A stretch of DNA of 64,000 nucleotides, from positions 62,101 to 126,100 of the forward strand of contig CAWEFA010000124.1 of assembly GCA_963808135.1 (NCBI GenBank), given 5' to 3'. A model generated the notes under the pieces. That model saw only the letters and a list, made by a program, of their open reading frames with translations. It was not told the DNA's origin and searched no databases. This document shows, piece after piece, positions 2,096 to 39,558 of this stretch. The stretch is from an uncultured Bacteroidota bacterium (GTDB lineage: Bacteria > Bacteroidota > Bacteroidia > Bacteroidales > DTGW01). The first letter of the stretch is position 1. Every line of letters starts with the position of its first letter. Position numbers and translations under genes: made by a program.

Positions 2096-2824
2096 TTATA
2101 TTTTCTTTTTACTTATAACATTATTCATTCTAAATTTCATCCCATCGCTACCTTTGCGTTTAATTACACATTTTTTTGTTCCTGATGCGACCACTTTATA
2201 TGGAATGTCAAATTGCATTGCTGCAATTCTCATATATAAATATCCTGCACCCATACTTAGTTCTTCGCTGCCATAAGCGCCGCCGTCTTCAAATGCAAGG
2301 ACTGCTTTGTAACTGCCAGTTATACTGTCAACCGTAAAACTGTTTGTAAAATAATATTCCAGGTTACTTTTTAAAGGCAGCGAGGAAGTTGTATAAATAT
2401 ATTGTTTATTGCTTTCCGCAGTGAAACTTAAATTCAGCGTCCAAACGAGATTGCTTTGCATGTCTAATTCGGTTTTTGAATAATTGCAGCTTTCATCATA
2501 ACAAAATTCTTTGTAATTAAGCTTAATTATTCCTGTAAAGGTAGCTGTATCATTAGGCAAATATTTAGGTGTGTCTGCGGATAAATGTGTGCTTTTATCG
2601 AGGTAGTAAATTAGCTGTCCTATGCAAATTTCGCTAATCTTTCCATAGGAATTGGTATCTTTCCAGCAAAGGTTCACGGTAGTCGATTTTGAAGTATCAA
2701 CTTTAAATGACGATGTATCGCTTGGCAAAGTTGCAATTGCTTTGTTATTGTCGGTGTTTTTTGTACAAGCGTTGATTCCTAACAACATCAGGAAATAAAT
2801 TATAATTGGTACATAATTATTCAT
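2096..2824 (-). CDS. Hypothetical lipoprotein preceded by the conserved leader
   Basis: 242-aa ORF with a signal peptide and a GINAC lipobox. It ends 8 nt upstream of the next ORF. Confidence 0.6.
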   Translation of the reverse strand: MNNYVPIIIYFLMLLGINACTKNTDNNKAIATLPSDTSSFKVDTSKSTTVNLCWKDTNSYGKISEICIGQLIYYLDKSTHLSADTPKYLPNDTATFTGIIKLNYKEFCYDESCNYSKTELDMQSNLVWTLNLSFTAESNKQYIYTTSSLPLKSNLEYYFTNSFTVDSITGSYKAVLAFEDGGAYGSEELSMGAGYLYMRIAAMQFDIPYKVVASGTKKCVIKRKGSDGMKFRMNNVISKKKI

Positions 2825-2915
2825 ACGTAAATAATTTTATTTTTTATGGTCGTATGGAACACCCATATTATCTTCATTCGTGTTTGCGAATAACAGAACC
2901 GTGGGTGTTTCATAT
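2825..2915 (-). promoter_or_regulatory. Conserved ~91-nt leader, copy A (paralogous copy at 51790-51880)
   Basis: Roughly 94 percent identical to copy B by eye (5 substitutions and 1 indel). Both copies abut the ATG of a minus-strand outer-membrane gene. Contains the inverted repeat ATGGAACACCCA (2854-2865) / TGGGTGTTTCAT (2902-2913). Confidence 0.6.
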
Positions 2916-2979: not shown

Positions 2980-4576
2980 TTACTTTGATAATTCACACCA
3001 TCCTAAATTTGCACAGGCTGCTGGATCGATACCGTTGGAAGTGCCATCTTCGCCGGCATGCGAAACACCTCCAAAAGTATAATATGGAAATTGAAGTGTT
3101 TCCAATTCCCTTCCCGGTATAGGATAATGAAGAAACGTGCCTTTTTGTAACATATTCCTGCGGCGCATATCGCAAAAGCCAACCATAAAACCTTGTGCCA
3201 ATAGCTCTATTTCCCTTTCATAAAATATTGCATTAAGAACATCCGTTTCTGTAGCGGTACTGGGAATGACACTTAAGCGGCCCCTATTAAGTCTTGGATT
3301 ATTATTATCGTTAAGAATAGCTAAAGCTTTATCTTTTTGTCCAGTCATAATATAAGCTTCGGCCATATATAAATCGTTTTCATATTTTCTGTAATCATAT
3401 AACTGGCCAATGCCATTTCCATTTACCGATAAATAAGGATACCTGACATACTGGTAGTGTGAGAAATAATAGTATCCCCTTGATGCATAAAACCCATTGG
3501 AAGAAAAATATTTAAAATCTGTTGTGAGCCTGTAATCATTCGATTTTGCTTCACCAGCTTGTAAACCGGAATGTACCTGCCTGGGTATCCCATCGCTCCA
3601 ATAACGCGAAGGATAATCAGGGTCCATCAGATGGATAAGGCGGCAATCGACAAAAGCATAAGCATAAGCATTATTCATTGGATAATTGAGCCCTAAAAAA
3701 TTATTATCGTACCACCTTCCGCCATCAATAGATAATGCATCCCCGATTGGCCCGAAATCTTCAGTTATCCCATTTTGAGCATGATATAGAACTGTATCCC
3801 AGTTAACGTTTTTGTTCTCTATCTCTGTTCTGGGAGTTAAAGCGAGAAAACGCGCGATATACGAGTGTGATAAACGCCCCAATTTAGTATTTGATAAAAC
3901 AACGCCATTTACAACTGTAGAATTACCGAATTGGAAATTAGCTGTGTCGCAAATGAAAATTACTTTTTCCAATGATTCAATAGCAGCGCTCATTACTTCA
4001 GGGTAATTCGAATAATTGGGCAATTTCACTGAACCTAAATCAGTATTTTCTTTCAAAATAATAGCCCTGTCGAAGCATAACCCCAACTGGCCCAGTATAA
4101 CACCCTGCAAATAATAACATAAAGCCAGTATGGCAGCGTTGTCTTTTCCATTCGTCCCAAGTTTCATGTTTTTATAAATAATTTCAGAGATTATAGGATT
4201 TACCGTTCCGCTCAATACGCTATACATCCCATAATAAAAATTCTCCGTAACATGATCATTATCAGCGCTAATTGTATTGTCCCATGGTATGCGGGGTTCC
4301 ATGCCAACATATCCCCATGCATAATTGTACCAGCTTGAATGTGTACTGATTGGCAGCTACAAGCGATGTAGCATAAAGATTGGCTTTAACATTTACACCA
4401 TTTATCAAATTACCATGTGTAACCTGCCAATATGATAAAAATGCATTTTTCGCAAGCGTTTCTATTTTAATCGGATTTGAAAACACGCTGCTTCTGTCAG
4501 GATTATTTGTGTCAACAACATTGAGGTTGCATGAGTAAATAGTTAGAAGGAATATTATGCAAAAATATTTTCCCAT
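2980..4576 (-). pseudogene. SusD/RagB-family lipoprotein with one frame disruption (fragments 4268-4576 and 2980-4302)
   Basis: The N-terminal ORF has a lipoprotein signal (LTIYSC). The second frame continues ...SSWYNYAWGYVGMEPRIPWDN... to a SusD-like C-terminus. It lies directly downstream of the SusC-like gene. Total length is 1 mod 3. Confidence 0.75.
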
Positions 4577-4589
4577 ATATAATAATTTA

Positions 4590-7500
4590 TTAAAATTTTA
4601 ATTCCAATGATACTGTAATTGTCCTGTAATTAGGATAATTAAATATATCAATAACATAATTTGTAAGATCGTTGCCTGATGAAACTTCAGGGTCCCACCC
4701 GGTATATTTTGTAAAGGTAAGAAGGTTACGGCCTAAAATTCCAATCTTCCCTTCCTTAATAAACCCGAAACGGGTGTTTGACAAAAACTTTCCGCCAAAA
4801 TCGTAATATAAACCCAATTCCCTTAGTTTTAGAAATGATGCGTCTTCAACAAAATAAGTATTTGCCTGCCTGGCATCATAAAATACAGAATAATAATCAA
4901 TAGTTTTCTTTTCATATTCAGGCTTCCCGTATTGATCGCATACGCCTGCCTTTTGGTCCAAAAATAAATATTGCTTTGTCATATTGTAAATATTCCCGCC
5001 ATTTTTCCAGTTCCACAGCATATTTAACGATAAATGTTTCCATGTTATAGTAGTTGAAAACGACATATTAAATCTCGGGTTCATATCGGCGATTTTAACA
5101 AAGTCAGGAGAATTGTCATTATTTTGGTCTAACGCAATAGGGGCTTCAAATTGAGTGCCTTCCGTACCTTTAAGAATAACATAGCCGTCAGAATTAACCT
5201 TATAATCGTTAATGCTTTTTCCCTGGGGAAGCTGATGTTCCATCTGTTGTAACGATTTTACCCAATCGTAACCATACATAATTCCAAAAGGCTCTCCTGC
5301 TTTTATATAAAAATAAGGCGCTTCTTCCGGGCCAGTTTGAAAAGGAGGAACATTTAATGCATCAACAATTTGGCTCATTTTATCAAAACTTACATTTATA
5401 TTCCAATTCAAGTCTTTTGATTTGATAGCCTGCACGCCCAATGTACACTCGAATGAAGTACTTTTTAAAGAAGCGGCATTTTGCCATTGGTATTCAAAAC
5501 TTGTAACCGCCGGAAGAGGAACTGGTACGAAAGCCCTCGTAGTTTTGTTATTTGATAATATAACTTCTGCTTCGAAACGGTCAAAAAAATCAGAACTTAT
5601 AGCAAATTCCGTTTCCTGTGTTTCAGATGGTTTTAAATTTTTATTCCCTGAAGTAGCAGGTACCAGAGAGCCAACAGAAGATATAGCATATGTCTCATAC
5701 TGGTATTCGAATTCAGGTCTTTGACCTGAAGTGCCTACAGATGCCCTGAGTTTTAATTCCTGTACATTTGGTATTTTTAAATCGTCGCCAATCCTGTATG
5801 CGCCTGATATCCTGTAATATGGGTTCCAACGGCTGTTAGAGCCAAACAATGAAGAACCATCGTACCTGTAAAGCATCGAAGTCATTAGTTTTCCTTTGTA
5901 ATCAAGATCCAAAATTCCAAAATAGTTCTCTGCAATAGTTTTAATATATTGAGAACCAAGCGTTTTATTTCCAGTAATAGCATTAAGGGCCGATACACCT
6001 GAAGAAGCAAAATCGAGCCCACTAGCATAAAACGGGTCTGATGAATAATTCTCTAAAAGGTAGCAAAATTTAGCCTTAGTTGTAAAATTTCCAAATATCT
6101 GGTTTATATTTAAGGTTGTTTGAATTGTTTGGCTTAAACTTCCACCACTTTCTCTTTCTTCAAACCCATTCTGTTCGCTTCCGCCATTGCCCATATAACC
6201 TACGCTATCGAAATCGGTATACGAAATATACGTTTTTTCAAAACTATAGTCTGCATCCGCTTCCATCCACTTTAACATATTATACTTAACCGAAATATTC
6301 TGCATTATTTCGTCCCTATCTGTTGTTCGCTGATCATAATATAATGAATGTTTAGGGTTTCCTGCTAATGCCCAATTATCAGGTTTAAAATAATATTTTT
6401 TTAACAGCATGGTATCCGGGGCATTCATGTTTAAATTAACATCGGGGTTCATAAACAACACATCTGAAAAAGCGCTTGAAGCGCCCCCGCCATCATTTAC
6501 CGTTTCGCCTCCATTAGGTAAATCAAGTTGTGTTTGCGAAATAAAAGTACTGGTCGATAATTTAACATTACTATATACATTGCAATCGATGTTAAAGCGG
6601 AAATTTTGCTTGTCTAAACCTTTTTTGCTGAAAACAATCCCGGAATTATGGTTGTTTTCAAACGAGGCCATAATACTTGTTTTATTGTTATTATTGGCAA
6701 TTGAAACAAAATTGGTATAAAAATTCCCATTTGGGAATATCTCTTTTTGCAGGTCATTATTAAAAGAATAAGGATTATCGGCATAATGATCGTAATCAAG
6801 TTTTCTGGATCCCTGAATCCTGGGATCTCCACCCCCATGATAATCTGCCGGATAAATTACTCCGTCGACAGATCCGTCAGGAAGAATTTGCCCATAGTAT
6901 TTAGTATAATCTTTCTGTTTGTAATCATCGGCAAGCATATAAGGATGGTGTTCTGCAAGGTTAATTTCTTTAATCAGGCTCGAAACACCATATTCGTTTC
7001 TTACTTTAATTTCAGTATTGCCCTCAGAAACTGAACCTCCCCTTTTAGTTGTAATAACTATAACGCCGCTGCCAGCACGGGAGCCATAAAGCGCTGATGC
7101 AGCGGCGCCTTTAACTACCTGCATATCGGCAATATCATCGACATTTATATCGGAAAGTTCGCCTTCCATCATTACGCCATCTACGATTATTAAAGGACTT
7201 TGTGTACTAAGAAGTGAAGTAGAACCTCTTAACCGTATCCCGGCAGTTTGCCCCGGATTTCCGCTCGCGTTAACGACAACAAGCCCTGCTACTTTTCCCT
7301 GAAGGGCAGTTGCAGCAGATGTAGCCGGAACTTTTTCAAGTTCATCGGAACCAACTTTGCTTACTGAAACACTTAGCTTGCGTTTTGGCGTAGCGCTGGC
7401 TACACCGGCTACCACAACTTCTTCCATTTTAAATACATCTGCGCCCAGTGTAACATTTATTGTTGTTTGATCCGATATAACAAATTCCTGTGGTTTCATT

Positions 7501-7724
7501 CCAACAAAACTAAAAACCAGGGTAGCGCCCTTATTTACGTTAATTTTGTATTTTCCGTCAATATCGGTCATTGTGCCGGTTGTAGTGCCTTTTATTATAA
7601 CGGCAGCCCCCGGTAATCCTAAGTTGTCATCGGAGCTTATAACAGTTCCTGTAATTGTAATTTGCGCTATAGCTAAACTTTTTAGGATAATTATAAATAA
7701 GAGTAGTAGTCCTGATTTTTTCAT
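4590..7724 (-). CDS. SusC/RagA-family TonB-dependent outer-membrane receptor
   Basis: 1044 aa. Signal peptide, CarboxypepD_reg-like N-terminus (ITITGTVISSDDNLGLPGAAVIIKGTTTGTMTDIDGKYKINV), plug region and a C-terminal ...SLELKF. Confidence 0.9.
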   Translation of the reverse strand: MKKSGLLLLFIIILKSLAIAQITITGTVISSDDNLGLPGAAVIIKGTTTGTMTDIDGKYKINVNKGATLVFSFVGMKPQEFVISDQTTINVTLGADVFKMEEVVVAGVASATPKRKLSVSVSKVGSDELEKVPATSAATALQGKVAGLVVVNASGNPGQTAGIRLRGSTSLLSTQSPLIIVDGVMMEGELSDINVDDIADMQVVKGAAASALYGSRAGSGVIVITTKRGGSVSEGNTEIKVRNEYGVSSLIKEINLAEHHPYMLADDYKQKDYTKYYGQILPDGSVDGVIYPADYHGGGDPRIQGSRKLDYDHYADNPYSFNNDLQKEIFPNGNFYTNFVSIANNNNKTSIMASFENNHNSGIVFSKKGLDKQNFRFNIDCNVYSNVKLSTSTFISQTQLDLPNGGETVNDGGGASSAFSDVLFMNPDVNLNMNAPDTMLLKKYYFKPDNWALAGNPKHSLYYDQRTTDRDEIMQNISVKYNMLKWMEADADYSFEKTYISYTDFDSVGYMGNGGSEQNGFEERESGGSLSQTIQTTLNINQIFGNFTTKAKFCYLLENYSSDPFYASGLDFASSGVSALNAITGNKTLGSQYIKTIAENYFGILDLDYKGKLMTSMLYRYDGSSLFGSNSRWNPYYRISGAYRIGDDLKIPNVQELKLRASVGTSGQRPEFEYQYETYAISSVGSLVPATSGNKNLKPSETQETEFAISSDFFDRFEAEVILSNNKTTRAFVPVPLPAVTSFEYQWQNAASLKSTSFECTLGVQAIKSKDLNWNINVSFDKMSQIVDALNVPPFQTGPEEAPYFYIKAGEPFGIMYGYDWVKSLQQMEHQLPQGKSINDYKVNSDGYVILKGTEGTQFEAPIALDQNNDNSPDFVKIADMNPRFNMSFSTTITWKHLSLNMLWNWKNGGNIYNMTKQYLFLDQKAGVCDQYGKPEYEKKTIDYYSVFYDARQANTYFVEDASFLKLRELGLYYDFGGKFLSNTRFGFIKEGKIGILGRNLLTFTKYTGWDPEVSSGNDLTNYVIDIFNYPNYRTITVSLELKF

Positions 7725-13637: not shown

Positions 13638-14006
13638 TTAATTTGTGATAACCGGTTCATCTTCTTTCAAATAAAGCGCTTCGGGAACTTTTTCGCCTGT
13701 CCTGATTCGTATAACATCTCCTATGTCTGAAACAAAAATTTTGCCATCACCAATAATGCCTGTTTGTGCAGCTCTTATGATTGCGTCAATTGTTTTCTGT
13801 GCATTCTGGTCGCGCACTATAATAGATAACATTCTTCTTTGTATACGGTTAGCTTCAAACACTGCTCCTCTATAAATATGTCCTTCGGTTTCTTTTCCAA
13901 CTCCCGTAACATCCCAATACGTAAAAAACTGTATATCCACATCATGCAAAGCTATTTTCACATCTTCAAATTTTGCTTTACGAATAATTGCTTCAATTTT
14001 TTTCAT
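13638..14006 (-). CDS. P-II family nitrogen regulator (copy 1, stand-alone)
   Basis: 122 aa. MKKIEAIIR..., T-loop-like GVGKETEGHIYRGA and B-loop TGIIGDGKIFV. Confidence 0.85.
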   Translation of the reverse strand: MKKIEAIIRKAKFEDVKIALHDVDIQFFTYWDVTGVGKETEGHIYRGAVFEANRIQRRMLSIIVRDQNAQKTIDAIIRAAQTGIIGDGKIFVSDIGDVIRIRTGEKVPEALYLKEDEPVITN

Positions 14007-14056
14007 TTTAATAAACTATTAATTTAAAATTGTTACTAATCCACATTTTATAAATG

Positions 14057-14064
14057 CAAATTTA
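14057..14064 (-). promoter_or_regulatory. Candidate -7 box TAAATTTG for P-II copy 1
   Basis: TAnnTTTG match 51 nt upstream of the ATG at 14006. Confidence 0.35.
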
Positions 14065-14254
14065 AGATAAATTTTTAAATTTTAAAGATTCTGCTGATTA
14101 TTATTTATTGATTTACAATTAGATATGAAGTATAAAAATGGGTAATAAAAATGAATTTCTATGTTTTTAGCTGTTATAGCACATATTTACATAAGGTATA
14201 AAGTCAAAATAATATATTTGAATTTTACACCTTATGTAAATTTAGGGGATAATT

Positions 14255-14292
14255 AAAAAAAACGGAAAATTATTAATTCTCCGTTTTTTTTT
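14255..14292 (-). terminator. Intrinsic terminator after ammonium transporter 1
   Basis: AACGGA / TCCGTT stem flanked by an A-run and a T-run. Confidence 0.55.
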
Positions 14293-14371
14293 CTTTATTT
14301 CTTTTTTATTAGAAATACCATAAAAAATTGTCAATAATAATCATTAATTGCTTATTACTATTTTTAAATTA

Positions 14372-15749
14372 TCATTCAGCTTCGGTATAGGCAATTTCTT
14401 CATGCTGGCTAATGTCCAAACCATCATTTTCCTCTGAAACACTTGCTCTGATGCCAAATAATTTATCTACAATTTTATAAAGTATAAAAGTCAGCAACAA
14501 GCAATAAATAGCTGAAACACCGACTGCCAATGCCTGAATACCAAATTGTCTGGGATTTCCATATAATACTCCGCTATAAGCTTTTTGAATTGCAGGATTA
14601 GCAAATACACCAACCAATAACGAGCCTAATATACCTGCAACTCCGTGCACACCAAAAACATCTAATGAATCGTCATATTTAAATTTAATTTTTACAGTTC
14701 CTACCATTATATAACAAGTTATAGCGCTTACAATGCTTATAACAAAAGCAGCCTGAAGATTAACAAAGCCTGCAGTTGGTGTTATAGCAGCCAGCCCTGC
14801 AACAGCACCTGTACAAAATCCCACAGTAGTTGGCTTTTTATTAATTATCCAGTCTAAAATAACCCATGTCATTGCGGCAGTAGATGCTGCAATGTGTGTT
14901 ACAAGAAAAGCATTAGCCGCTACCCCGTCAGCAGCTAGTCCCACTTCCTGCATTAAATCCAAACCAACCGACCCACAATAATCCTGTTCCAATAACTACA
15001 AAGGGAATATTATGTGGTGAAACAGAAAATCCATCTTCATAATATTTTCTTCTTCCAATCATTATTGCCATAACGAGAGCCGATAAGCCTGCTGACAAAT
15101 GAACAACAATACCGCCTGCAAAATCCAAAACGCCCATCTTATTGAGCCAGCCGTCGGAGGACCAAATCCAATGTGCTAAAGGATTGTAAACCAATATGGC
15201 CCATAATAAACTAAATACTAAAAACCCTTTGAATTTAATGCGTTCAGCAAATGCGCCTATTATTAATGCAGGAGTAATTACTGCAAACATGCACTGGTAT
15301 AATACAAATACCAAATGAGGTATCGGTTGTTGAGGCATTGAAACCATATATGGACTGGCATCGTTCACCCCGATACCATTAAGAAAAGCCCATTTAAACC
15401 CTCCAATATACGGAGATAATAGCCCGTTTGATGAACCAAATGCATTACTATACCCAAAAATCACCCATTCAATGCTTATTGCCGCTGTTAAAATGAAACA
15501 TTGCATTAATATATTCAATACGTTTTTTCTACGTACAAGACCACCATAAAATAAAGCTAATCCCGGAATTGTCATCATCAGCACAAAGGCAGTTGAAACC
15601 AACATCCATGCCGTATTTCCAATATTAATTGAGGGCGAAGCTGTACTTACATTTCCGTTTTGAGCTAAAATACTTGTTAAAATTGAAGGTATAAATAGCA
15701 GAATTAAACATAATAAAACCTTTTTGAACAGAATTTTATTCATGACCAT
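14372..15749 (-). pseudogene. amt: AmtB-type ammonium transporter 1 with one frame disruption (fragments 14928-15749 and 14372-14992)
   Basis: The fragments align end to end with the intact paralogue at 16023-17453 (GWFGFNAGSG / LAADGVAANAFLVTH). Deleting one base near 14936-14942 restores the frame. Confidence 0.85.
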
Positions 15750-15802
15750 ATCCTTTCCAATAATTAGTTAATAAACTTTCCTTAATTTTTCCTTTCCGGC
15801 GA

Positions 15803-15810
15803 CAAAAATA
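15803..15810 (-). promoter_or_regulatory. Candidate -7 box TATTTTTG(TC) for ammonium transporter 1
   Basis: TAnnTTTG match 54 nt upstream of the ATG at 15749. Confidence 0.4.
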
Positions 15811-15944
15811 AAATCTTTTTTAAATAAAATTCAGTATATTTTAATTTATTTAATCATATTTCAATTTTAACCATACATATTAGGTATTTGATTTTATATT
15901 TTAATATTGTTTTTATTGTGAATATATATTTTAAAGGGGTATAA

Positions 15945-15980
15945 TAAAAAACGGAGATATTTATAAAAATATCTCCGTTA
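15945..15980 (-). terminator. Intrinsic terminator after ammonium transporter 2
   Basis: Perfect 13-bp stem AACGGAGATATTT (15950-15962) / AAATATCTCCGTT (15967-15979), a 4-nt loop, then a T-run on the minus strand. Confidence 0.8.
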
Positions 15981-16022
15981 ACCGAACTGCGTTGAAAACT
16001 AATTATTGGAAAGGATCAAGGA

Positions 16023-17453
16023 TTACTCAGCTTCGGTATATGCAATTTCATTATGCTGTGAAATATCAAGACCTGTGGCTTCTTCATCAGCAGTAGCCCT
16101 AACCCCTAACGTTAAATCAACTATTTTAAACAAAATGGCAGTTATCACTGAAGTATATATAATTGTAGCAACAACAGCGATTACCTGTATCCCGAATTGT
16201 TTTGGGTTGCCATAAAACGCGCCGCTACAAGCGCTTTGCACTGTAGCAGTAGCAAATAATCCGGTTGCAAGCGCACCCCACAAACCGCCTATACCATGAA
16301 CGCCAAATGCATCAAGAGAATCATCATAACCAAATTTTGGTTTTACAATACCTACCATAATAAAACAAAATACTGAAACCAATAAACCTATTACTAAAGC
16401 TCCGGTGACATCAACAAAACCAGATGCAGGTGTAATGGCAACCAAACCTGCAACAGCTCCGGTGCAGATTCCAACAATGGTAGGTTTTTTATTTATAAAC
16501 CAATCTAACAACGCCCACGATAATGCAGCCGCAGCAGTTGCAACGTGTGTTACAAGAAAAGCGCTTGCTGCAAGGCCATCAGAAGCCAATCCGCTCCCTG
16601 CATTAAAACCAAACCATCCTACCCACAAAAGTGCAGCACCGATTAATACAAGGGGTATACTATGCGGCTGTGTTCCGTGTCCGTTAACATATCTTCGTTT
16701 ACCAATCATTAATGCAGTAACAAGCGCAGCAAAGCCTGCATTGATATGAACAACCGTACCACCTGCAAAATCGAGCGCACCTAATTTTAATAGCCAACCA
16801 TCAGATGACCAAACCCAGTGGGCAACAGGGTTGTAAACAAAAAGCGCCCATAAAATAGTAAAAATCAGAAAGCCGCGAAACTTAATCCGTTCTGCAAATG
16901 CACCTATAATTAACGCGGGTGTAATTACTGCAAACATACATTGAAACAGAATAAAAACTAAATGAGGTATTGTGCCGATTGTTCCTCCTCCCGGAGCCGC
17001 TTGTGAATGCGAAACAAAGTATGGGCTTAAATCGGTAATTTTAATCCCTTTCAGAAAAGCCCAATCAAATCCACCGATATATGGAGCAAGAAAACCCTTT
17101 GACGATCCAAAAGCCATGCTGTAACCTATAATTACCCATTCTAAAGTAATTACAGCCGTTATAATGAAACACTGCATAAGAACGTTGAGAACATTTTTAC
17201 GACGCACCAGACCGCCATAAAACAAGGCAAGGCCAGGAATTGTCATTAGTAATACTAAAACTGTAGCCACAATCATCCAGGCTGTATCACCTGAATCGAC
17301 TTTGGGAGCAACTATCGTTGTAACATTAGTTGCTATAGGTTTAATCATTGTACCTGCTGTTTTTGTTGTATCCTGGGCATAAATATTGTTCCCAATAAAG
17401 CAAAAGATTAACATTGAGCAGACACTTATATATTTTAATATTCTTGTTTTCAT
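16023..17453 (-). CDS. amt: AmtB-type ammonium transporter 2
   Basis: 476 aa with a signal peptide. LMTIPGLALFYGGLVRRKN, GWFGFNAGS and HGIGG motifs. Confidence 0.9.
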   Translation of the reverse strand: MKTRILKYISVCSMLIFCFIGNNIYAQDTTKTAGTMIKPIATNVTTIVAPKVDSGDTAWMIVATVLVLLMTIPGLALFYGGLVRRKNVLNVLMQCFIITAVITLEWVIIGYSMAFGSSKGFLAPYIGGFDWAFLKGIKITDLSPYFVSHSQAAPGGGTIGTIPHLVFILFQCMFAVITPALIIGAFAERIKFRGFLIFTILWALFVYNPVAHWVWSSDGWLLKLGALDFAGGTVVHINAGFAALVTALMIGKRRYVNGHGTQPHSIPLVLIGAALLWVGWFGFNAGSGLASDGLAASAFLVTHVATAAAALSWALLDWFINKKPTIVGICTGAVAGLVAITPASGFVDVTGALVIGLLVSVFCFIMVGIVKPKFGYDDSLDAFGVHGIGGLWGALATGLFATATVQSACSGAFYGNPKQFGIQVIAVVATIIYTSVITAILFKIVDLTLGVRATADEEATGLDISQHNEIAYTEAE

Positions 17454-17499
17454 GATTTTTACTTTTTTAAATTCAAAATTATTTTTAACGAATTGGCAT

Positions 17500-17856
17500 T
17501 TATGATTCTTCTCCTTTTAAAAACAAAGCTTCAGGCCCTTTCTCGCCATTTCTTATGCGATATACCTCAAGTATGTCTGAAATAAAAATCTTTCCATCAC
17601 CCAATTCGCCTGTCTTGGCTGAATTAACAATTGCATTTACTGTTTTTTCTAAATTTTGATCCCTAACGATAATAGACAGATTCAAACGTTGGATTTTACT
17701 GGTATCGTAGGATTTGCCTCTAAAAATAATTTTTTCGGTTTCTTTTCCAATACCTGTCGCATCCCAATAAGTAAAAAAATGGATATCGATGTCTTGTAAT
17801 GCTTTTTTTACATCCTCGAACTTCGATTTGCGAATAATTGCTTCAATTTTTTTCAT
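17500..17856 (-). CDS. glnK: P-II family nitrogen regulator (copy 2, directly upstream of amt 2)
   Basis: 118 aa. Same fold signature as copy 1, with Phe in place of the T-loop Tyr (IIFRGKS). Confidence 0.85.
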   Translation of the reverse strand: MKKIEAIIRKSKFEDVKKALQDIDIHFFTYWDATGIGKETEKIIFRGKSYDTSKIQRLNLSIIVRDQNLEKTVNAIVNSAKTGELGDGKIFISDILEVYRIRNGEKGPEALFLKGEES

Positions 17857-17907
17857 ACCCTCTTTATTAATTAATAATTATAGTTTAAAAATCTTCCGTT
17901 TAAAAGT

Positions 17908-17937
17908 AAAAAACAATATCGATCGATATTGTTTTTT
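17908..17937. promoter_or_regulatory. Perfect 30-bp palindrome AAAAAACAATATCGA|TCGATATTGTTTTTT
   Basis: Exact reverse-complement symmetry checked base by base. It starts 7 nt downstream of the candidate -7 box and ends 52 nt upstream of the P-II copy 2 ATG. Confidence 0.6.
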
Positions 17938-17943
17938 ATCTGA

Positions 17944-17951
17944 CAAAAATA
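17944..17951 (-). promoter_or_regulatory. Candidate -7 box TATTTTTG(TC) for the P-II 2 / amt 2 operon
   Basis: TAnnTTTG match. The extended form is the same as upstream of amt 1 and the porin-like gene. Confidence 0.4.
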
Positions 17952-18577
17952 TATATTTTTTCTTTTATTGCCTACTTTTTTGTATTTATTTTATATATAT
18001 TTTTATTCTTTATAATTTTTTTGTATTTTTATTAGGGGTAAATATATGTTTTTATATATTATTTTAATTATGCACCTTTTTTTTGTAATTGTTTCCTATT
18101 TTATAAATTGATTTGTAAATGTTTATAAATAATCATAATAATATTTAATATTGTTATCTTTTTATCTATAATAATTTCAAATTAAAATTAAAAAATGATT
18201 AATAGATTAAATTTTATATTTTTTCTCTTTTTAGATTGTTTTTTAATCCATTATCCAATTAACTAACCATGCAATTATAAATTTTTGTTTCTAAATTTAA
18301 ATTGAATACTTTTTTGTATAATCACAGAATCATATTTTCATTCTTTCTGAATTTGTTTAGCACTTAATTTTAAGAAATTTGATTTAGCATTATGATAATT
18401 TGATTGCCAACCTATTATTGAAAGCATTGCAAAAAAAATATTAACATAGATTATTGTTCCATTCCTTGATTTTTTAACTCTACACTAAGATCATCAAAAA
18501 AGGGATAAAATTTTATTTATTTTTATCAGCGCTCGTATTATTGTTCTTTGCCTCTATTTAAAAAATTAGATTGCTTT

Positions 18578-19945
18578 TTAACGGATAAATAAGAATTGAA
18601 CAAAAATAAATATAGGTAACAGGATTAAAAGAGACAATGCCATGTAGCCAAAAAACGATGGCATTTTAATATTATTCTCTTCGGCAATTGCCTTAATCAT
18701 CATGTTTGGAGCGTTGCCAATATAAGTAATTGCCCCCATAAATGATGTGCCTGCAGTTATTGCGATAAGTGTTGTTGGTATAACATTGGTCATAAATAAA
18801 TTTGGCGCCATATGTAAGGCAGAAGCAGGAGTGGCAGCAGTTTTAAAAAAAACCAGGTATGCAGGAGCACTGTCGAGGAAGGCCGATAATCCGCCGGAAA
18901 GCCAATAATACATGCCGTTTGCCGGATGACCTTCTTTATTTGTCAAGCTATTAATAATAAAACTCATCGTCCCTTCTTTTCCGGCGCTCAGCATGGCAAT
19001 AAGCGGAGCCATACATATAAAAATTGCCATAAATAATTTTCCTACTTCTATAATCGGGCGCCAGGTAAAATTATTCAGCGACCTTATTTCTTTAGTGGTT
19101 ATATTTACAGAGACAAAAGTAATAGTAAGCAATAATAATATTTCTATTAGTTCGCTTAAAGGAATAGGTACATGGTAAAGAATAAACGCTGTGCCAAAAT
19201 CAAAACTCGAAAGAACTACCACAAATATTGTAAAAACCAGCAATATTATATTCCATATACCGTCAATACGTATTTTACTTTTAACCTTGTATATTGGTTT
19301 AACAGGTTCTTTTTTATAATATATTAAATCGATAATATAGTAAATGACAATAAGCAAGATTGTAACCAGGGCAGTGGGAACAAGCAATTTACTTATTGGC
19401 CAGAAAAAAGGGACTTTGTTTATGAAACCCATTAGTAATGGTGGGTTTCCAAAGGGAGTAAGTGAACCTCCAATGTTGCCAACAATAAATATAAAAAATA
19501 CAATTGTATGAACTTTATATTTTCTCCATGAATTTGCCTGGATAATCATCCTTATTAGTAGAACAGCTGTACCTATAGTTCCCAGCCAACTAGAAATGAT
19601 TGCCCCGATAAATAATAATATTACATTAACTTTTGGGGTTCCATCATGTTCGCCTTCAAGAGCAATACCGCCAGTTATTGTAAATACTGCAAGTAATAAA
19701 AAAATAAATGGAAAAAATTGATCGAACATGACCGAAAGAAAAGTAATAAAGCTTGTGCCTGGCCCTTGTGAAATTCCGATACCTGTTAATACAATGACAC
19801 TCCAGAACAAGGCGACTTTTCCATAATGTTTTCTCCAGAAATCAGGCAGCAATAATGGAAACAACGCAATTGACAAGATAATACCCAAAAATGGCAAACC
19901 CCAAAACGGTGACAAGATTGAACCATTTAATCCGGTATTTATCAT
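18578..19945 (-). CDS. Ion-transporter-superfamily permease (ArsB/NhaD-like, sodium:proton antiporter-like)
   Basis: 455 aa, polytopic with more than 10 TM segments. N-terminus ...LPFLGIILSIALFPLLLPDFWRKHYGK is typical of this family. Confidence 0.6.
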   Translation of the reverse strand: MINTGLNGSILSPFWGLPFLGIILSIALFPLLLPDFWRKHYGKVALFWSVIVLTGIGISQGPGTSFITFLSVMFDQFFPFIFLLLAVFTITGGIALEGEHDGTPKVNVILLFIGAIISSWLGTIGTAVLLIRMIIQANSWRKYKVHTIVFFIFIVGNIGGSLTPFGNPPLLMGFINKVPFFWPISKLLVPTALVTILLIVIYYIIDLIYYKKEPVKPIYKVKSKIRIDGIWNIILLVFTIFVVVLSSFDFGTAFILYHVPIPLSELIEILLLLTITFVSVNITTKEIRSLNNFTWRPIIEVGKLFMAIFICMAPLIAMLSAGKEGTMSFIINSLTNKEGHPANGMYYWLSGGLSAFLDSAPAYLVFFKTAATPASALHMAPNLFMTNVIPTTLIAITAGTSFMGAITYIGNAPNMMIKAIAEENNIKMPSFFGYMALSLLILLPIFIFVQFLFIR

Positions 19946-20173
19946 TTCTGTTGAATTAATCTCTTTACAAAAAACAGGTCGGGTTAGCCCGAGAATAAAA
20001 TTAAAAATAATATTAAATAAATTCTTTTCATTTTAAATATTTAAAAAACAAGGTAACAGTTGAAGCCAACTATTCGCATTGTTGTTTTTTCTGTTACCTT
20101 GGAACTCTATAAAATAGAGTTTTAAAAACACACTTTAAAAATATGATTTAATAATCAAATTAAGTTTTTTCAA

Positions 20174-20209
20174 ACAAAAGCCGTTAATCCTTTAATTAAC
20201 GGCTTTTGT
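20174..20209 (-). terminator. Hairpin terminator after ammonium transporter 3
   Basis: 15-bp stem ACAAAAGCCGTTAAT (20174-20188) / ATTAACGGCTTTTGT (20195-20209). Confidence 0.6.
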
Positions 20210-20255
20210 TATTTGATTAAAAACTACCATGATATTAAAGAACCGTCTTTTTATA

Positions 20256-21806
20256 TTATCTTGAAAGAGGCGTTTCTGCAGCTTTATCCATTTTGATACC
20301 GGCATAACCTTCAACACCCATTTCAGGAATGTCAAGACCTTCCATTTCCGTATTAGCAGAAACCCTGTTGCCAACACCAGCGCCAATGAGCTTAAATATT
20401 ATATAACTTACTGCGCCAATTACGATAAAGTTTGTTGTAACCCCAATTAATTCTGCTGTAAACTGGGAAGCATCGCCAAAGAATAATCCTCTTACGGTAC
20501 CCGCAACACCATTCCAACCATCGCCGTAGGTTCCATCTGCAAATAAGCCTAAAGCCAAACATCCCCATGCACCGTTTATACCATGCACTGCAACAGCTCC
20601 AACAGGATCGTCTACTTTTAGCTTTCTTTCTACAAAGAAAGCTCCTTCAACTGCTAGCAAACCGGAAACAAGACCAATCAAGCCTGCACACTGTACATTT
20701 ACAAATGCGCAAGGCGCTGTAATTGCAACCAAACCAGCAAGCAAACCGTTAACCATCATTGTTGGGTCAGGTTTTTTACTGCGATAAATCCACATCCAAA
20801 GCGTTGCAGCAATTGCACCCATTATTGAAGCGATTAGTGTATTTACAGCAACAACGGAAATTCTTAAATCAGTTCCTGCCAATGTTGAGCCGGGGTTAAA
20901 CCCAAACCATCCGAATGCAAGAATAATTGCGCCAACAACGGCCATTGGGATATTGTGTCCAGGAATGGCATTGGGCGAACCGTTCTTGTTATATTTACCA
21001 ATACGTGGGCCTAATATCCATGCGCCAACAAGCGCTATTACACCACCTGTCATGTGTACAACTGATGAACCGGCAAAATCAACATGACCATGGCCTAAGT
21101 GGAAATTTGAGCCTAACTGGGACAACCAGCCGCCGCCCCATACCCAGTTTCCAAAAAGCGGGTAGATTATTGCCCCAACAACTACGCCATAAATTGTGAA
21201 AGAAAGAAATTTCCATCTTTCCGACATAGCTCCTGTTGGTATAGTAGCGGCGGTATCCATAAATACAACCTGGAACAGGAAAAGGGTGAAAACACCAACA
21301 TCATAAACGCCTGAAAGAAAAAACCCTTTGGTGCCGATCAATCCGAATGCATGACCGAACAAGTGTATCGTAAATTCCTGGTTTAAACCGTCAAAGCCAC
21401 CCAATGTTCCTAAAGGGCCAACCCCTCCAAACATGATAGCAAATCCGCAAACCCAGAATCCAAAAACGCCAAGCCCGTAAACAAATAAGTTCATTGCCAT
21501 CGTATGGGCAGCATTTTTAGCTCGGGTCAACCCTGTTTCAACCATTGCAAAACCAGCTTGCATAAAGAAAACAAGGAACCCGGTAATTAATGTCCATACA
21601 ATGTTAATAGCAATTTTGTTATGTCCAATTTGATTTGCTAATTCCGCTATTGTTGGTTCACCAGCTTTTGCAGCCTGAACATCACTTGTATTGCCTGTTA
21701 CCGTACCACTGGGGTCGGGCTTCTTCTCCGCCATCGCTGTGCTTAATACTGAAGAGCATACAAACGCGGCGATCAGGCAAAATAATAATATATGTATTTT
21801 TTTCAT
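20256..21806 (-). CDS. amt: Ammonium transporter 3 (a different Amt clade, FMQAGFAMVETG type)
   Basis: 516 aa with a signal peptide, Amt motifs and a long C-terminal tail. Confidence 0.9.
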   Translation of the reverse strand: MKKIHILLFCLIAAFVCSSVLSTAMAEKKPDPSGTVTGNTSDVQAAKAGEPTIAELANQIGHNKIAINIVWTLITGFLVFFMQAGFAMVETGLTRAKNAAHTMAMNLFVYGLGVFGFWVCGFAIMFGGVGPLGTLGGFDGLNQEFTIHLFGHAFGLIGTKGFFLSGVYDVGVFTLFLFQVVFMDTAATIPTGAMSERWKFLSFTIYGVVVGAIIYPLFGNWVWGGGWLSQLGSNFHLGHGHVDFAGSSVVHMTGGVIALVGAWILGPRIGKYNKNGSPNAIPGHNIPMAVVGAIILAFGWFGFNPGSTLAGTDLRISVVAVNTLIASIMGAIAATLWMWIYRSKKPDPTMMVNGLLAGLVAITAPCAFVNVQCAGLIGLVSGLLAVEGAFFVERKLKVDDPVGAVAVHGINGAWGCLALGLFADGTYGDGWNGVAGTVRGLFFGDASQFTAELIGVTTNFIVIGAVSYIIFKLIGAGVGNRVSANTEMEGLDIPEMGVEGYAGIKMDKAAETPLSR

Positions 21807-21846
21807 AATCTTATATTTTTATTTGTTAAATACTATTTAAACTGAC

Positions 21847-22206
21847 TTATTTTTCGTAATCCCCTTTTAAGGATTCATCACCGCTTTGTTTCGTCCTGAT
21901 TTTCCAAGCCTCGTCCACAGGGGTAACAAAAATTCTTCCATCGCCCACCTCTCCGGTATATGCAACCTGAAGTATGCAATCGACGGTTTTTTTCACATTC
22001 TGATCGCGAACGATAATTTCTAATGTTCTTCGTGAAATATAAGCAGTGTCCAAGTTAGTACCTCTGTACATTTGATTAGACTTTTTCTTCTCATTGCCCA
22101 CGCCAATCGAATCCCAGTATGAAAAGAAATCGATGTCGATATCATGCAATGCTTGTTTAACTTCTTCGAACTTAGAAGTTCTAATAATTGCTTCAATTTT
22201 CTTCAT
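21847..22206 (-). CDS. glnK: P-II family nitrogen regulator (copy 3)
   Basis: 119 aa. T-loop two residues longer (GVGNEKKKSNQMYRG) and B-loop TGEVGDGRIFV. Confidence 0.85.
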   Translation of the reverse strand: MKKIEAIIRTSKFEEVKQALHDIDIDFFSYWDSIGVGNEKKKSNQMYRGTNLDTAYISRRTLEIIVRDQNVKKTVDCILQVAYTGEVGDGRIFVTPVDEAWKIRTKQSGDESLKGDYEK

Positions 22207-22236
22207 AACGTTCTATTTTAAAGGTTATTAATATGT

Positions 22237-27635: not shown

Positions 27636-29564
27636 TTATTTAACTTCTTCAAAATCGACATCCGTTGCTTCAGAATCTTTTGACTGTGCCGATGAACTTT
27701 CTCCTGTGCCGGCATTAGTTTGACTGGGGCCAGGTTGGGCATTTCCACTGCCTTGCTGGCTTGAAGCAGCTTTATACATTTCTTCAGAAGCTGCCTGCCA
27801 TAGAGTGTTTAATTCTGTTGTTGCTTTTTCAATTGCGCTAATATCCTGACTTTTATGAGCATCCTTTAATTTATTAAGAGCGCTTTCAATTGGCGCTTTT
27901 TTGTCAGCAGGAAGTTTATCCCCAAATTCCTTTAGCTGTTTCTCTGTTTGGAATATAAGGCTATCTGCAGTATTGAGCTTATCAATTTTTTCCCTGGCTT
28001 GCTTGTCGGTCTCTTCATTTGCTTTTGCTTCATCGCGCATGCGCTTGATTTCATCGTCAGTTAAGCCCGACGATGCTTCAATTCGAATACTTTGGGTTTT
28101 GCCCGTTGCTTTATCTTTTGCCGAAACATGCAAAATTCCGTTAGCGTCAATGTCAAAACTTACTTCAATTTGAGGAACCCCGCGTGGAGCAGGTGGCAAA
28201 CCATCGAGATGAAAACGGCCGATTGTTTTATTTCCGTTTGCCATTGGCCGCTCGCCCTGTAAAACATGTATTTCCACCGATGACTGGTTATCAGCTGCTG
28301 TTGTGAATGTTTCAGATTTTCTTGTAGGAATTGTGGTATTGGATTCGATAAGCTTGGTCATCACTCCGCCTAAAGTTTCAATACCAAGTGATAATGGAGT
28401 AACATCGAGCAATAAAACATCTTTTACTTCACCCGTCAAAACGCCGCCTTGTATTGCAGCGCCAACAGCAACAACTTCATCAGGGTTAACGCCTTTTGAC
28501 GGAACGCGCCCAAAGAAATCTTCAACGAGTTTTTGAACAGCCGGGATACGAGTCGATCCTCCTACCAAAATAACTTCGTTAACATCAGACGCTTTTAAAT
28601 TGGCGTCGGCTAAAGCTTTGCGGCAAGGTTCAATAGTAGCCTGGAAAAGATGATCGCAAAGTTTTTCAAACTGGGCGCGGGTAAGCGTTTTAACAAGATG
28701 CTTTGGAATACCGTCTACCGGCATAATGTAAGGTAAATTTATTTCGGTAGTTGTTGAACTGGAAAGTTCAATCTTTGCCTTTTCGGCAGCTTCTTTCAAA
28801 CGTTGTAATGCCATTGGGTCTTTCCGCAAATCAATGCCTTCATCTTTTTTAAATCCATCTGCTAACCAATCCACAAGAATATGATCCAGATCGTCTCCTC
28901 CAAGATGTGTATCGCCGTTTGTGGATTTAACTTCAAAAACTCCATCGCCAAGTTCAAGTATCGATATATCAAATGTGCCGCCTCCAAGATCGAATACAGC
29001 AACTTTCATGTCCTTCGATTTCTTATCTAAGCCATATGCCAAAGCCGCTGCTGTAGGTTCATTAATAATCCTGCGCACATTTAACCCGGCAATTTCACCT
29101 GCTTCTTTGGTTGCCTGGCGTTGTGAATCGCTAAAATACGCTGGCACCGTTATAACAGCTTCACTAATTTCCTGACCAAGAAAATCTTCTGCGGTTTTTT
29201 TCATTTTCTGAAGCACCATTGCAGAAATTTCCTGAGGGGAATATTTTCGGTCGTCAATTTTTACACGTGGGGTATTATTTTCGCCTCTTATAACATCGTA
29301 AGGTACGCGTTCAATTTCTTTTGATAAACGGTCGTATGTTTCACCCATAAACCTTTTGATTGAATATACCGTTTTCTTAGGATTTGTGATTGCCTGACGT
29401 TTAGCCGGGTCTCCGACTTTTCGTTCGCCATTTTCAACAAATGCTACAATCGAAGGGGTTGTTCTTTTCCCTTCACTGTTAGCAATAACAACAGGTTCGT
29501 TTCCCTCCATCACTGCTACGCATGAATTTGTAGTTCCTAAATCGATTCCAATTATTTTGCCCAT
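27636..29564 (-). CDS. dnaK: Molecular chaperone DnaK (Hsp70)
   Basis: 642 aa. [17 protein letters not shown] and other Hsp70 signatures. Confidence 0.98.
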
Positions 29565-29950: not shown

Positions 29951-30457
29951 TTATGCTGCATAATCTTTAAGCATTTCCATTAATTTTTTACGTGAAAAAA
30001 AAATCCTGCTTTTTACAGTTCCAATATTAAGATTTAATTTCTCAGCTATTTCTTTATACTTGTAACCATCGTGGTGCATTTTAAGTGGAACACGAAAATC
30101 ATCTTCCAACTGTTCAATGTTTTTGTTCAGTTCAACCGTAGTAAATGATGAATCAGGGTCGTCTGTTCCAGTTGCTTTTGGATAATTCAGATAAAAATTT
30201 TCTTTTGTAAGATCGCGATGGGTATTCTGGCGGACATTTCTCCTATAGTTATTAATGAATGTGTTTTTCATTATTGTATATGTCCAGGCCTTGAAATTAT
30301 CATTATGTATAAATTTATCCTTATAAATAAGAGCTTTCAGGAATGTTTCCTGTACTAAGTCTTTCGCATCTTCTTTGTTTAAAGTCAAGCTGTAAGCGAA
30401 TCTATCGAGATTGCCTTCCAGGCTTATGAGTTTGTGTTGAAATTCTATAGCTGTCAT
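29951..30457 (-). CDS. ECF-type RNA polymerase sigma-70 family factor (no adjacent anti-sigma)
   Basis: 168 aa. Region 2 (DLVQETFLKA...FKAWTYTIMKN) and region 4 HTH (YKEIAEKLNLNIGTVKSRI). Confidence 0.85.
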   Translation of the reverse strand: MTAIEFQHKLISLEGNLDRFAYSLTLNKEDAKDLVQETFLKALIYKDKFIHNDNFKAWTYTIMKNTFINNYRRNVRQNTHRDLTKENFYLNYPKATGTDDPDSSFTTVELNKNIEQLEDDFRVPLKMHHDGYKYKEIAEKLNLNIGTVKSRIFFSRKKLMEMLKDYAA

Positions 30458-38101: not shown

Positions 38102-38368
38102 CTATTTAATGCCTTTCGCAAGAGAAGCATTAAAAGCAGGTTCAGTTTCGGTTTTTAAATATTTTGAAGTGTCAGATAAATTGGGTTTGTTTTTCAAATC
38201 AGCGTAATTGCCGCTAAAGTTGCTTTTGGCGTCCCAATTGGCGGTATCGCTCTTTTTAATCCCTTTTGCAATAGAAGAATTAAAAGCAGGTTCGGTTTCA
38301 ATTTTTAAATAATTAACCGTATCCGATAAATCGGGTTTGTTGGTTAAATCAGCATAATTGCCACTAAA
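37720..38368 (-). repeat. Tandem 150-bp (50-aa) coding repeats, 4 full units plus 1 partial
   Basis: GTTTTTAAAT recurs at 37851, 38001 and 38151, and ATTTTTAAAT at 38301. The unit is FSGNYADLxNKPxLSDTxxYLKTETEPAFNxSxAKGIKxSDTANWxAKSN. Confidence 0.85.
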
Positions 38369-38797: not shown

Positions 38798-38803
38798 AGT
38801 ATT

Positions 38804-39292: not shown

Positions 39293-39505
39293 ATGTAATT
39301 TTCTTTATAATTTAAACTTTATAATAATTTCATTTAATGGCAAGTAATCTCTATTCTAAATTTAAATCCAATGCAGCTTTTTAGCTTAATTTTCACGGTT
39401 TAAAAGTAATATTTTTTTTCAATTTGTGTTAAAAAAGTTAAAATTATAACTTATGCCTATTAAATATAGCACAAGTCAAAGACTTGCGATTAAGAAGCCA
39501 ATAAT

Positions 39506-39539
39506 AAAAAACCCCGCTTATATTTTAGCGGGGTTTTTT
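39506..39539 (-). terminator. Intrinsic terminator after the PKD adhesin gene
   Basis: AAAAAACCCCGCT / AGCGGGGTTTTTT. Confidence 0.85.
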
Positions 39540-39558
39540 ATTGATACACACCATAAAT

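Follow-up and report, generated by a model that had tools for sequence, protein, structure and literature searches.

Correia elements of Neisseria and ERIC/IRU elements of enterobacteria are dispersed repeats of ~100-150 nucleotides (nt) that are co-transcribed, fold in the mRNA and can alter expression or stability. Mycobacterial MIRUs are intercistronic and often arranged in tandem; they follow the orientation of the flanking genes and keep register with the start and stop codons of these. Integron attC sites and the attP site of the CTX phage are recombination sites formed by a single-stranded hairpin in which unpaired or mismatched bases are conserved, and integration is orientation-specific. 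Gene cassettes carry attC at their 3′ ends and form arrays beside the integrase gene; the CTX phage uses dif. Elements of the IS200/IS605 group recognise their target and cleavage sites by base pairing with a short internal 'guide' and not by protein, according to two reports (PMC3201880, PMC5934647). In Borrelia, free-standing stem-loops derived from IS605 ends adjoin lipoprotein genes and have been retained as RNA-type structures containing G·U pairs (PMC2775950). Here a structured repeat of about 89 nt was analysed that occurs twice in 64,000 nt of DNA from an uncultured Bacteroidota bacterium (Bacteroidales; DTGW01; assembly GCA_963808135.1, contig CAWEFA010000124.1, forward strand, positions 62,101 to 126,100), hereafter the window. 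Both copies, A and B, are on the minus strand and end at the start codon of a gene.

The two copies very probably belong to a family of ~89-bp non-coding, non-autonomous mobile elements of Prolixibacteraceae-like Bacteroidales with the target ATGAA(A). This was judged the best explanation because the family is dispersed in many copies, keeps one fixed orientation, carries the hexamer at both junctions, shares the hexamer in tandems, shows insertion polymorphisms and reuses native start codons.

Copy A has a body of 89 nt (minus strand, 2825-2913), from the 5′ ATGAAAC to the last base before the gene's ATG. The body of copy B (minus strand, 51790-51879) is 90 nt long, with one additional A in an A-run. 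Over these bodies the copies are ~93% identical, with five substitutions and the single-A indel, and outside them similarity collapses on either side. The initial annotation had described the pair as a ~94% identical leader at 2825-2915 and 51790-51880; both copies are real, at marginally lower identity and within slightly tighter limits. It had also let the similarity begin at the base after each ATG, and this boundary had to be moved: the common sequence runs on through ATGAA, taking in the start codon and the next two bases. The right-hand hexamer of copy A is ATGAAT (minus strand, 2819-2824), which repeats the first five bases of the element and forms the start codon and codon 2 of a lipoprotein gene. 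That of copy B is ATGAAA (minus strand, 51784-51789), the start codon and Lys codon of a gene for a TonB-dependent receptor. An in-frame stop 15 nt upstream of the ATG after copy A makes this ATG the earliest possible start. A repeat finder grouped the copies as one family (D15; 88 nt, 91% identical), and a 68-nt degenerate pattern matched the window at these two places only (0 expected, 100 shuffles). A covariance model, R1, was built from 36 distinct copies of the element; in the window it matched copy A (2819-2913, 101.9 bits, E 6.7e-21) and copy B (51784-51879, 104.8 bits, E 1.5e-21) only.

Each window copy contains a 12-bp outer stem, ATGAAACACCCA / TGGGTGTTCCAT, with a single A·C on the sense strand (G·T on the plus strand), and within it an inner hairpin, ATTCG-CAAACA-CGAAT. 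The initial annotation had pointed out this inverted repeat with its one non-Watson-Crick pair, and folding agreed with it: both copies form an irregular long hairpin with a stability above that of shuffled sequences (z -3.9 for copy A and -5.3 for copy B). Hairpin 1 of copy A (minus strand, 2854-2913) comprises the outer stem 2902-2913 / 2854-2865, the mismatch 2910/2857 and the inner hairpin 2876-2891, and was found in RNA and DNA folds and in family-wide pair counts. The corresponding hairpin of copy B is at 51820-51879 on the same strand, with its outer stem at 51868-51879 / 51820-51831. A second helix was predicted next to the gene. In copy A (minus strand, 2822-2856) it pairs CATACG (2851-2856) with CGTATG (2822-2827, start codon included) across the A-rich spacer. 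In copy B (minus strand, 51787-51822) it pairs CATACG (51817-51822) with CGTATG (51787-51792), again with the start codon paired, and is part of the minimum-free-energy structure.

Relatives of the two copies were sought in public collections. An exact 20-mer of the 3′ arm (GGGTGTTCCATACGACCATA) had no match in the genome or metagenome collections, both of which lack the source genome. A 19-mer of the inner hairpin gave 53 genome loci, almost all from two Mariniphaga sp. metagenome-assembled genomes (MAGs; JBAXOA01 and CAYHDA01, ~25 each). The others were one locus in a third Mariniphaga MAG, one in a 'Bacteroidales bacterium' MAG and a chance match in a Pirellulaceae genome. Many 19-mer matches have a contig end within 35 nt, the usual mark of an assembly-breaking repeat. 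In metagenomes the 19-mer gave 10 loci, six of them true copies at four distinct sites. Copies were aligned on the 19-mer, and the resulting Mariniphaga consensus reads ATGAAACACCCATGAATCTGCGCTTCGCAAACACGAATGAAGATAACTCAGGTGTTCCATCAGGCAATTAAAAAACAAATTATCTTCTG, followed by ATGAAA. Searching the related loci (414 kb) with R1 gave 61 matches below E 1e-8, and the model also found two diverged copies without the 19-mer. Viral contigs, phage records and plasmid records contained no copy of the element. In total, at least five other genomes or metagenome populations hold dozens of copies with the same boundaries.

The unit is 89 nt long and asymmetric, with a G+C content of 0.33-0.39 and no conserved open reading frame (ORF). 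All true copies start with ATGAAAC and are followed immediately by ATGAA(A), and in the flanks beyond these hexamers no other base is strongly conserved. The ends of the element, ATGAAACACCC... and ...AAATTATCTTCTG, have no inverted similarity to each other; the sole inverted repeat is between the 5′ terminus and an internal site. Head-to-tail arrays were found in which neighbouring units share one hexamer. One of them, L027, has 3.1 units with a period of 89 and 98% matches, and L006 has two units where its orthologue L018 has one.

Insertion polymorphisms were identified at further loci. L009 is an exact 89-nt empty site relative to its paralogues L050, L035 and L033: the sequence is CACTA-ATGAC-TAGG when empty and CACTA-[ATGAAAC...CTG]-ATGAA-TAGG when filled. 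L056/L061 and L059 represent one locus in different metagenomes, with flanks 94-97% identical. In L059 a patatin-like gene follows directly after the element (ATGAAAAAGGTC...). L056 has an additional 137-nt sister element exactly at the ATGAAA of that gene, reading ATGAAACGAGCATGG ... GTTCCAT ... ATATACGA, then ATGAAA. ATGAA(A) is present at both junctions of filled sites, and empty sites have one ATGA(A/C). The closest homologue of the receptor after copy B (P0003, 75% identical) is on a partly syntenic JGI contig (L065); its gene starts with ATGAAAAAA (ATGAAA), and at this start the covariance model detected no element. These two presence/absence polymorphisms and the empty orthologous site locate insertion exactly at sites of the ATGA(A) type.

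Several variants of the repeat were recorded. The sister element (type 2, 137 nt; L056 5745-5886 and L011 from 1925 onward) has the termini ATGAAAC...GTTCCAT...ACGA plus ATGAAA around an unrelated body; it forms a tandem with a preceding type-1 copy, and its presence differs between L056 and L059. In one sub-variant a nested hairpin of 22 nt (CTCCCGATAAATCGGGACAGGCT) replaces CCAT (L003, L008, L025, L028, L037, L041 and L048). A further derivative (L024, L032, L033 and L052) looks like a deletion between two CAGG repeats and has lost the 3′ arm of hairpin 1. A different repeat of ~430 nt in the CAYHDA01 Mariniphaga MAG interrupts a long-variant element in L009 (~880-1215) and hosts the element in L050, L035 and L033. 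Extended flank repeats in L028, L034, L044 and L005 were considered as longer target duplications and are better read as decayed tandems, that is, remnants of older upstream copies.

Gene starts were scored at 45 sites, each counted once and intact at its 3′ end. From the right-hand ATG an ORF extends for 80 codons or more, or off the contig end, at 32/45 sites (about 72%); at 12/45 it does not, and at 1/45 another unit follows. The copies at the sites away from genes, about a quarter, keep the same sequence. The genes after the copies include thyA, ilvD (dihydroxy-acid dehydratase-like), gmk (guanylate-kinase-like), a deoxynucleoside-kinase-like gene, and genes for lipoproteins and for proteins with twin-arginine (TAT) or Sec signal peptides. 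Residues 1-263 of the product of the thyA copy align to residues 1-263 of E. coli ThyA, and the ATG at the right edge of the element is therefore the native start codon. Many copies, copy A among them, are housed in a short spacer just after an upstream gene. The same loci contain free ATGAAA hexamers at 82 called gene starts, at 121 other non-genic places and at 622 places within genes; no element copy was seen within a gene in these loci, which fits purging of a frame-shifting 89-nt insertion.

These placements change how the window pair is to be read. The initial annotation had treated it as a leader common to two outer-membrane genes, a notion that does not survive the relatives, whose copies precede thyA, ilvD, guanylate kinase and genes of every class. 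The outer-membrane character of the two window genes is incidental; signal peptides tend to begin with Met-Lys. One of its other suggestions, a dispersed repeat that supplies 5′ untranslated regions (UTRs), was essentially right. It had further reasoned that copies placed at random with respect to genes and orientation would mark a plain repeat; the observed placement is not random, being sense-oriented and on start codons at ~72% of distinct sites.

Conservation of the fold was assessed by pair counts on an alignment of 36 sequences. The outer stem is nearly invariant, with ATGAAA opposite TTCCAT and the A·C mismatch in 35/36 copies, and the inner 4-bp hairpin is invariant. Three further pairs link two triplets, the CAG that follows TTCCAT and the CUG directly before the start codon. 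Double compensatory changes were found at all three of these pairs: CAG/CUG of Mariniphaga is replaced by ACG/CGU in copies A and B, UAG/CUA in L013 and CAC/GUG in L034, and there is a CUG/CGG wobble in L056/L059. The covariation score of this helix was reached by 0/500 column shuffles and was also above all slid controls. RNAalifold carried helix 2 across the start codon (CAUCAG/CUGAUG). A middle 4-bp helix (positions 16-19/41-44), suggested by the consensus, was discarded, being mismatched in many copies. A T is found two bases upstream of the left ATGAAAC in about 50-58% of cases, against 31% at free ATGAAA gene starts. Such a T would be in keeping with pairing to the A in the element's internal CAG triplet; with tandem and decayed flanks removed, the preference is only suggestive.

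TTCCAT is able to pair with either copy of ATGAAA. Circular permutation of the element, the situation at a tandem or circle junction, merges both helices into a single stem of 14 positions, UCUGAUG-A-AACACC / GGUGUU-C-CAUCAGG. The predicted hairpin has -22.8 kcal/mol (z -4.55) in the junction form versus -19.0 kcal/mol (z -2.3) in the linear form. Folds with DNA parameters gave the same architecture on both strands. The 3′ end has only a 6-bp helix closing a ~23-nt loop, beside the strong 5′ hairpin. A diverged subfamily (L011 1833-1930) has the same termini, TTCCAT and A-rich spacer. The interior of its stem is wholly unlike that of the others, and its arms are still complementary (ATGAAATAGCCATGA / TCATGGCTATTCCAT); the triplet pair here is CUG/CAG. 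Subfamilies thus agree in the termini, in the 'anti-target' TTCCAT with its surrounding pairing and in the spacer, and not in the body, a pattern typical for the cis-acting ends of mobile DNA. In Rfam 15 the only gathering-threshold match in the window was a tRNA, and a relaxed search of copy A and a tandem array, junctions included, gave a best E of at least 0.65. The series CUGAUGA...GAAAC at tandem junctions was considered as a hammerhead and rejected: the boxes enclose no helix II, the window copies have ACGUAUGAA instead, and no Rfam ribozyme was matched.

From these data the following course of events is proposed. The element would integrate at an ATGAA(A) hexamer in one fixed orientation, which would leave the hexamer at both junctions. 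ATG-AAA (Met-Lys) is a very common gene start in these AT-rich genomes, and an intragenic insertion of 89 nt would shift the frame; for these two reasons survivors would accumulate exactly on start codons. The right-hand hexamer would take over as the gene's own start codon, and the A-rich open sequence brought by the element would keep the gene translatable. The cis-acting signal for the mobilising enzyme may be the ATGAAA/TTCCAT pairing with its invariant A·C, together with the covarying CAG/CUG triplet. The internal anti-target TTCCAT(CAG) may pick (CTG)ATGAAA-like sites through base pairing, in analogy to target choice by IS608 or to folded-hairpin sites. A circle junction would read ...ATCTTCTG|ATGAAACACC..., with the flanks absent. 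By the same analogies, mobilisation is probably hairpin-dependent. A more specific scheme is offered tentatively and is rather doubtful as a whole: a new kind of hairpin-guided element that homes to start codons, whose excised copy, circular or single-stranded, would fold into a single stem with ATGAAA opposite TTCCAT and the fixed A·C. A putative recombinase would use the anti-target to choose (T-N-)ATGAAA, and the element would ride on Met-Lys starts across the genome, restoring the start codon and bringing an initiation region of its own. As a by-product, a mobile 5′ leader would arise; its decoy AUG and its helix with the AUG could tune translation in bacteria that lack Shine-Dalgarno recognition.

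A number of observations weigh against the mobile-element interpretation. A transposase or recombinase with matching ends was found neither in the window nor in 415 kb of related loci, and mobility is for this reason inferred from the polymorphisms and not from a mechanism. The same loci contained no autonomous parent, searched for as hairpins of the form ATGAAA+stem...stem+TTCCAT lacking the short 3′ module and as multi-copy ORFs. A Y1 (HUH) TnpA relative with the same ends was found neither in them nor in the window, and the window has no integrase. The one transposase in the window belongs to an unrelated DDE_Tnp_4 insertion sequence (IS) in the TonB receptor gene, and the remaining window genes are ordinary chromosomal ones. 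The element has no terminal inverted repeats and is thus not a classical MITE (a miniature transposable element with inverted repeats). A target duplication and a target plus an identical element end cannot be told apart from sequence alone. For the source genome itself, the two copies described here were examined. On the sense strand, G·U departures from pairing exceed A·C ones (~7 vs 2 distinct events), and L013 and L034 have single-copy compensatory changes; these could instead reflect selection on RNA structure at individual loci. Finally, 73% of elements are on gene starts versus 40% of free non-genic ATGAAA sites (binomial p 1.4e-5; gene calls crude, first ATG, at least 100 amino acids (aa)). 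A plain model of target plus purifying selection may therefore be incomplete.

One alternative is an exapted cis-regulatory RNA leader, which may have spread as mobile DNA and would act in the mRNA as a module of translational control. In it, TTCCAUCAG would have two alternative partners, the upstream decoy AUGAAA (hairpin 1) and the true start (helix 2), and a 4-codon decoy ORF (MKHP-stop), temperature or both would shift the balance. Such a role would be compatible with mobility as an added function, and we regard it as possible and on the whole improbable. The initial annotation had likewise listed a shared cis-regulatory RNA, of which the covarying helix next to the start stands, set against the lack of an Rfam match and a small predicted effect on accessibility. 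The idea gains from that covariation, from one-sided changes that are mostly sense-strand G·U, from RNA folds that place the AUG within a helix, and from the sense orientation of most copies in 5′ UTRs or intercistronic spacers. One report also describes initiation in Bacteroidota as tuned by mRNA structure and dependent on low structure and upstream adenines rather than on Shine-Dalgarno pairing, with AUGs near the start normally avoided (PMC6847099). The element supplies a structured leader of 89 nt with extra AUGs, and before the start codon a spacer of about 25 nt that is A-rich (…AAAAAACAAATTAT…) and mostly open. Partition-function folding was used to compare 31 element-bearing starts with their reconstructed empty sites. 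The predicted unpaired fraction from -20 to +15 was unchanged (0.556 with the element, 0.523 empty), and the predicted openness of the start codon was 0.40 with the element versus 0.48 empty (p 0.04). The model suggests that insertion is tolerated by the host and at most mildly dampens initiation. This small change, within an initiation region otherwise unaltered, counts against a regulatory leader, as do the lack of any function common to the downstream genes and the unchanged sequence of copies away from genes. The decoy ORFs of copies A and B also differ, and the preserved A·C mismatch and the termini conserved across unrelated interiors fit a DNA-level signal better.

The remaining alternatives were given far less weight. 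A conserved small ORF or leader peptide with translational coupling, as proposed for mycobacterial MIRUs, would suit the 30-codon ORF of copy A, whose ATG...GTA TGA overlaps the lipoprotein ATG, and the 46-codon ORF of the type-2 element in L056, which ends in an ATGA overlap. No reading frame is conserved in the family, however: copy B stops after 4 codons (ATG AAA CAC CCA TGA) and has the frame-shifting A, the Mariniphaga consensus also has 4 codons, and subfamilies differ in frame and length, which makes a peptide highly unlikely. Slightly better placed, and still very unlikely, is a mobile promoter cassette for an extracytoplasmic function (ECF) sigma factor, with TGAAAC-N17-TCGC as -35/-10 elements and an alternative sigma factor such as that encoded at 29951-30457 (minus strand). 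The initial annotation had raised this possibility, and both of its ingredients were located: the motif in both window copies, and the ECF-type sigma gene in the window. The motif is also in the Mariniphaga consensus, and the type-2 element has a TGAAAC-N17-CGAA variant. Against a promoter, TGAAAC belongs to the ATGAAAC terminus and target, TCGC belongs to the stem of the inner hairpin, and the '-10' is absent from the sister subfamily at L011 1833, whereas an ECF promoter would be expected to keep an 'AAC' -35 and a 'CGT'-type -10, 16-17 nt apart, in all conserved copies. The genes downstream, housekeeping ones such as thyA and ilvD included, are diverse in function and form no coherent regulon, and copy A is within an operon-like SusC/SusD run, in the short spacer after susD. 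The sigma gene itself has neither an anti-sigma nor a dCas12f or other Cas12f/TnpB-like neighbour; it is flanked by dnaK (27636-29564) and by genes for an O-methyltransferase (30699-31340) and an M16 peptidase (31348-32568). Positive evidence for the cassette was thus not obtained. In a described dCas12f-sigmaE system, an rpoE-dcas12f locus acts with a guide RNA that matches a site upstream of susCD (PMC13472631). The repeat as a target of such a system was rejected: no Cas12f/TnpB-like gene adjoins the sigma gene, and the repeat is upstream of many non-sus genes. The TAnnTTTG box was also considered. As initially noted, no exact box is present on the sense strand upstream of copy A or copy B, and among 49 family members five have one within 120 nt upstream, about the chance rate. 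A non-mobile local duplication or gene conversion between two loci, with ends at start codons by chance, would agree with a 64-kb window that shows two copies only; dozens of identically bounded copies in at least five other genomes or metagenome populations, and the insertion polymorphisms, leave it almost no credence.

The two genes after the window copies encode unrelated proteins, as had been stated at the outset. The gene after copy A (2096-2824, minus strand) is downstream of a SusC (4590-7724) / SusD (2980-4302) pair and encodes a 242-aa orphan lipoprotein with no Pfam match. Its sole match among 5.8 billion proteins is itself, and the database entry starts 12 residues downstream, which would leave no signal peptide. 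After copy B, the ORF at 50245-51789 (minus strand) encodes the 5′ part (514 aa) of a CarboxypepD_reg/Plug TonB-dependent receptor, with the rest at 48447-49178 beyond an IS. The receptor gene (48447-51789) is cut by this ~1 kb plus-strand IS into ORFs of 514 and 243 aa; intact homologues have about 781-789 aa. The IS (~49255-50263) has 33-nt imperfect inverted repeats (49255-49287 / 50231-50263), and its transposase is itself split into 49330-49668 (weak HTH_Tnp_4 match) and 49779-50234 (DDE_Tnp_4, 4.5e-21).

Two other regions of the window were recorded. Three ammonium-transporter paralogues are found within 13867-22209 (14372-15749, 16023-17453 and 20256-21806), the first as two overlapping ORFs of 206 and 273 aa, possibly owing to a frameshift. 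A repeated unit of ~140 nt (families D8/D17) precedes each paralogue and covers the conserved gene start, and an imperfect palindrome (14163-14263; 49-nt arms, 71% complementary, 3-nt spacer) is upstream of the first. A run of large repetitive surface-protein genes extends over 33035-47244. Part of it are a 1520-aa ORF that has 51-nt tandem repeats (33561-34070) as well as 300-nt repeats, and several PKD-domain proteins with C-terminal sorting domains of the type IX secretion system (T9SS) at 38804-39292, 39559-41901, 42125-44077 and 44011-47244.

If the mobile-element interpretation is correct, the family would be a plain bacterial example of a mobile repeat that in effect targets the start codon. 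It would explain why an identical 'leader' reaches up to the ATG of unrelated genes, and would caution against calling such repeats regulons, riboswitches or promoters. Re-creation of the start codon and an open, A-rich initiation region suited to Bacteroidota would offer a route to high copy number with little damage. The complementarity between hexamer and target and the continuous junction hairpin point to base-pairing-guided integration, which would be relevant to the biology of mobile DNA and perhaps to programmable insertion. In practice, the repeat breaks short-read assemblies, with many copies at contig ends, and can mislead gene-start calling, as with the lipoprotein called 12 residues short. 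A literature search of incomplete coverage turned up no account of a repeat associated with start codons in Bacteroidota, Mariniphaga or Prolixibacteraceae.

The element was compared with the known systems. Like a classical MITE it is small, non-coding, multi-copy and dispersed; unlike one, it has no terminal inverted repeats that match a parent IS. With attC and attP it shares a short core at both junctions and a circular form that carries the complete site, the junction form of the element being one continuous stem. It differs from attC in placement: its units are gene-less, dispersed and on start codons with no linked integrase, whereas attC marks the 3′ end of cassettes arrayed beside intI/attI. 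Correia and ERIC elements, in contrast to this one, carry terminal inverted repeats; they duplicate TA or lack a fixed target, and they are not in precise register with start codons. MIRUs are minisatellite units of 46-101 bp with small ORFs overlapping the neighbouring stop and start codons, whereas the element has no conserved ORF and its copies are mostly single. The stem-loops of Borrelia are at gene 3′ ends and have an identified IS605 parent (PMC2775950); the element is at the start codon, and no parent of it was found.

REP, BIME and REPIN sequences are closer to the element in being short, structured, highly repeated and extragenic; they are often in operons and, according to two accounts, are thought to be non-autonomous and mobilised as hairpins by RAYT (TnpA-REP) (PMC3333891, PMC8266576). 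REPs, however, are G+C-rich palindromes of 20-40 nt, often in inverted doublets and with no link to start codons, whereas the element is 89 nt long with 33-38% G+C, asymmetric and tied to ATGAAA. With IS200/IS605 elements and their non-autonomous derivatives (PATEs) it shares the lack of terminal inverted repeats, a fixed orientation beside a short specific target and, in part, hairpin-containing ends, and its TTCCAT(CAG), complementary to (CTG)ATGAAA, resembles the guide of IS200/IS605. It departs from this group in a target of 5-6 nt that is identical to its own right end, and in having one strong hairpin instead of two subterminal ones and no Y1 partner in the loci scanned. Its pairing is an ordinary antiparallel helix, unlike the non-canonical interactions of IS608. 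By analogy, the element resembles IS200/IS605-type or REP-type hairpin elements most in how it would work, and repeats of the Correia, ERIC or MIRU type in its consequences. Non-autonomous structured mobile repeats are a kind already known; the unusual property of this one is a target that is in effect the Met-Lys start codon.

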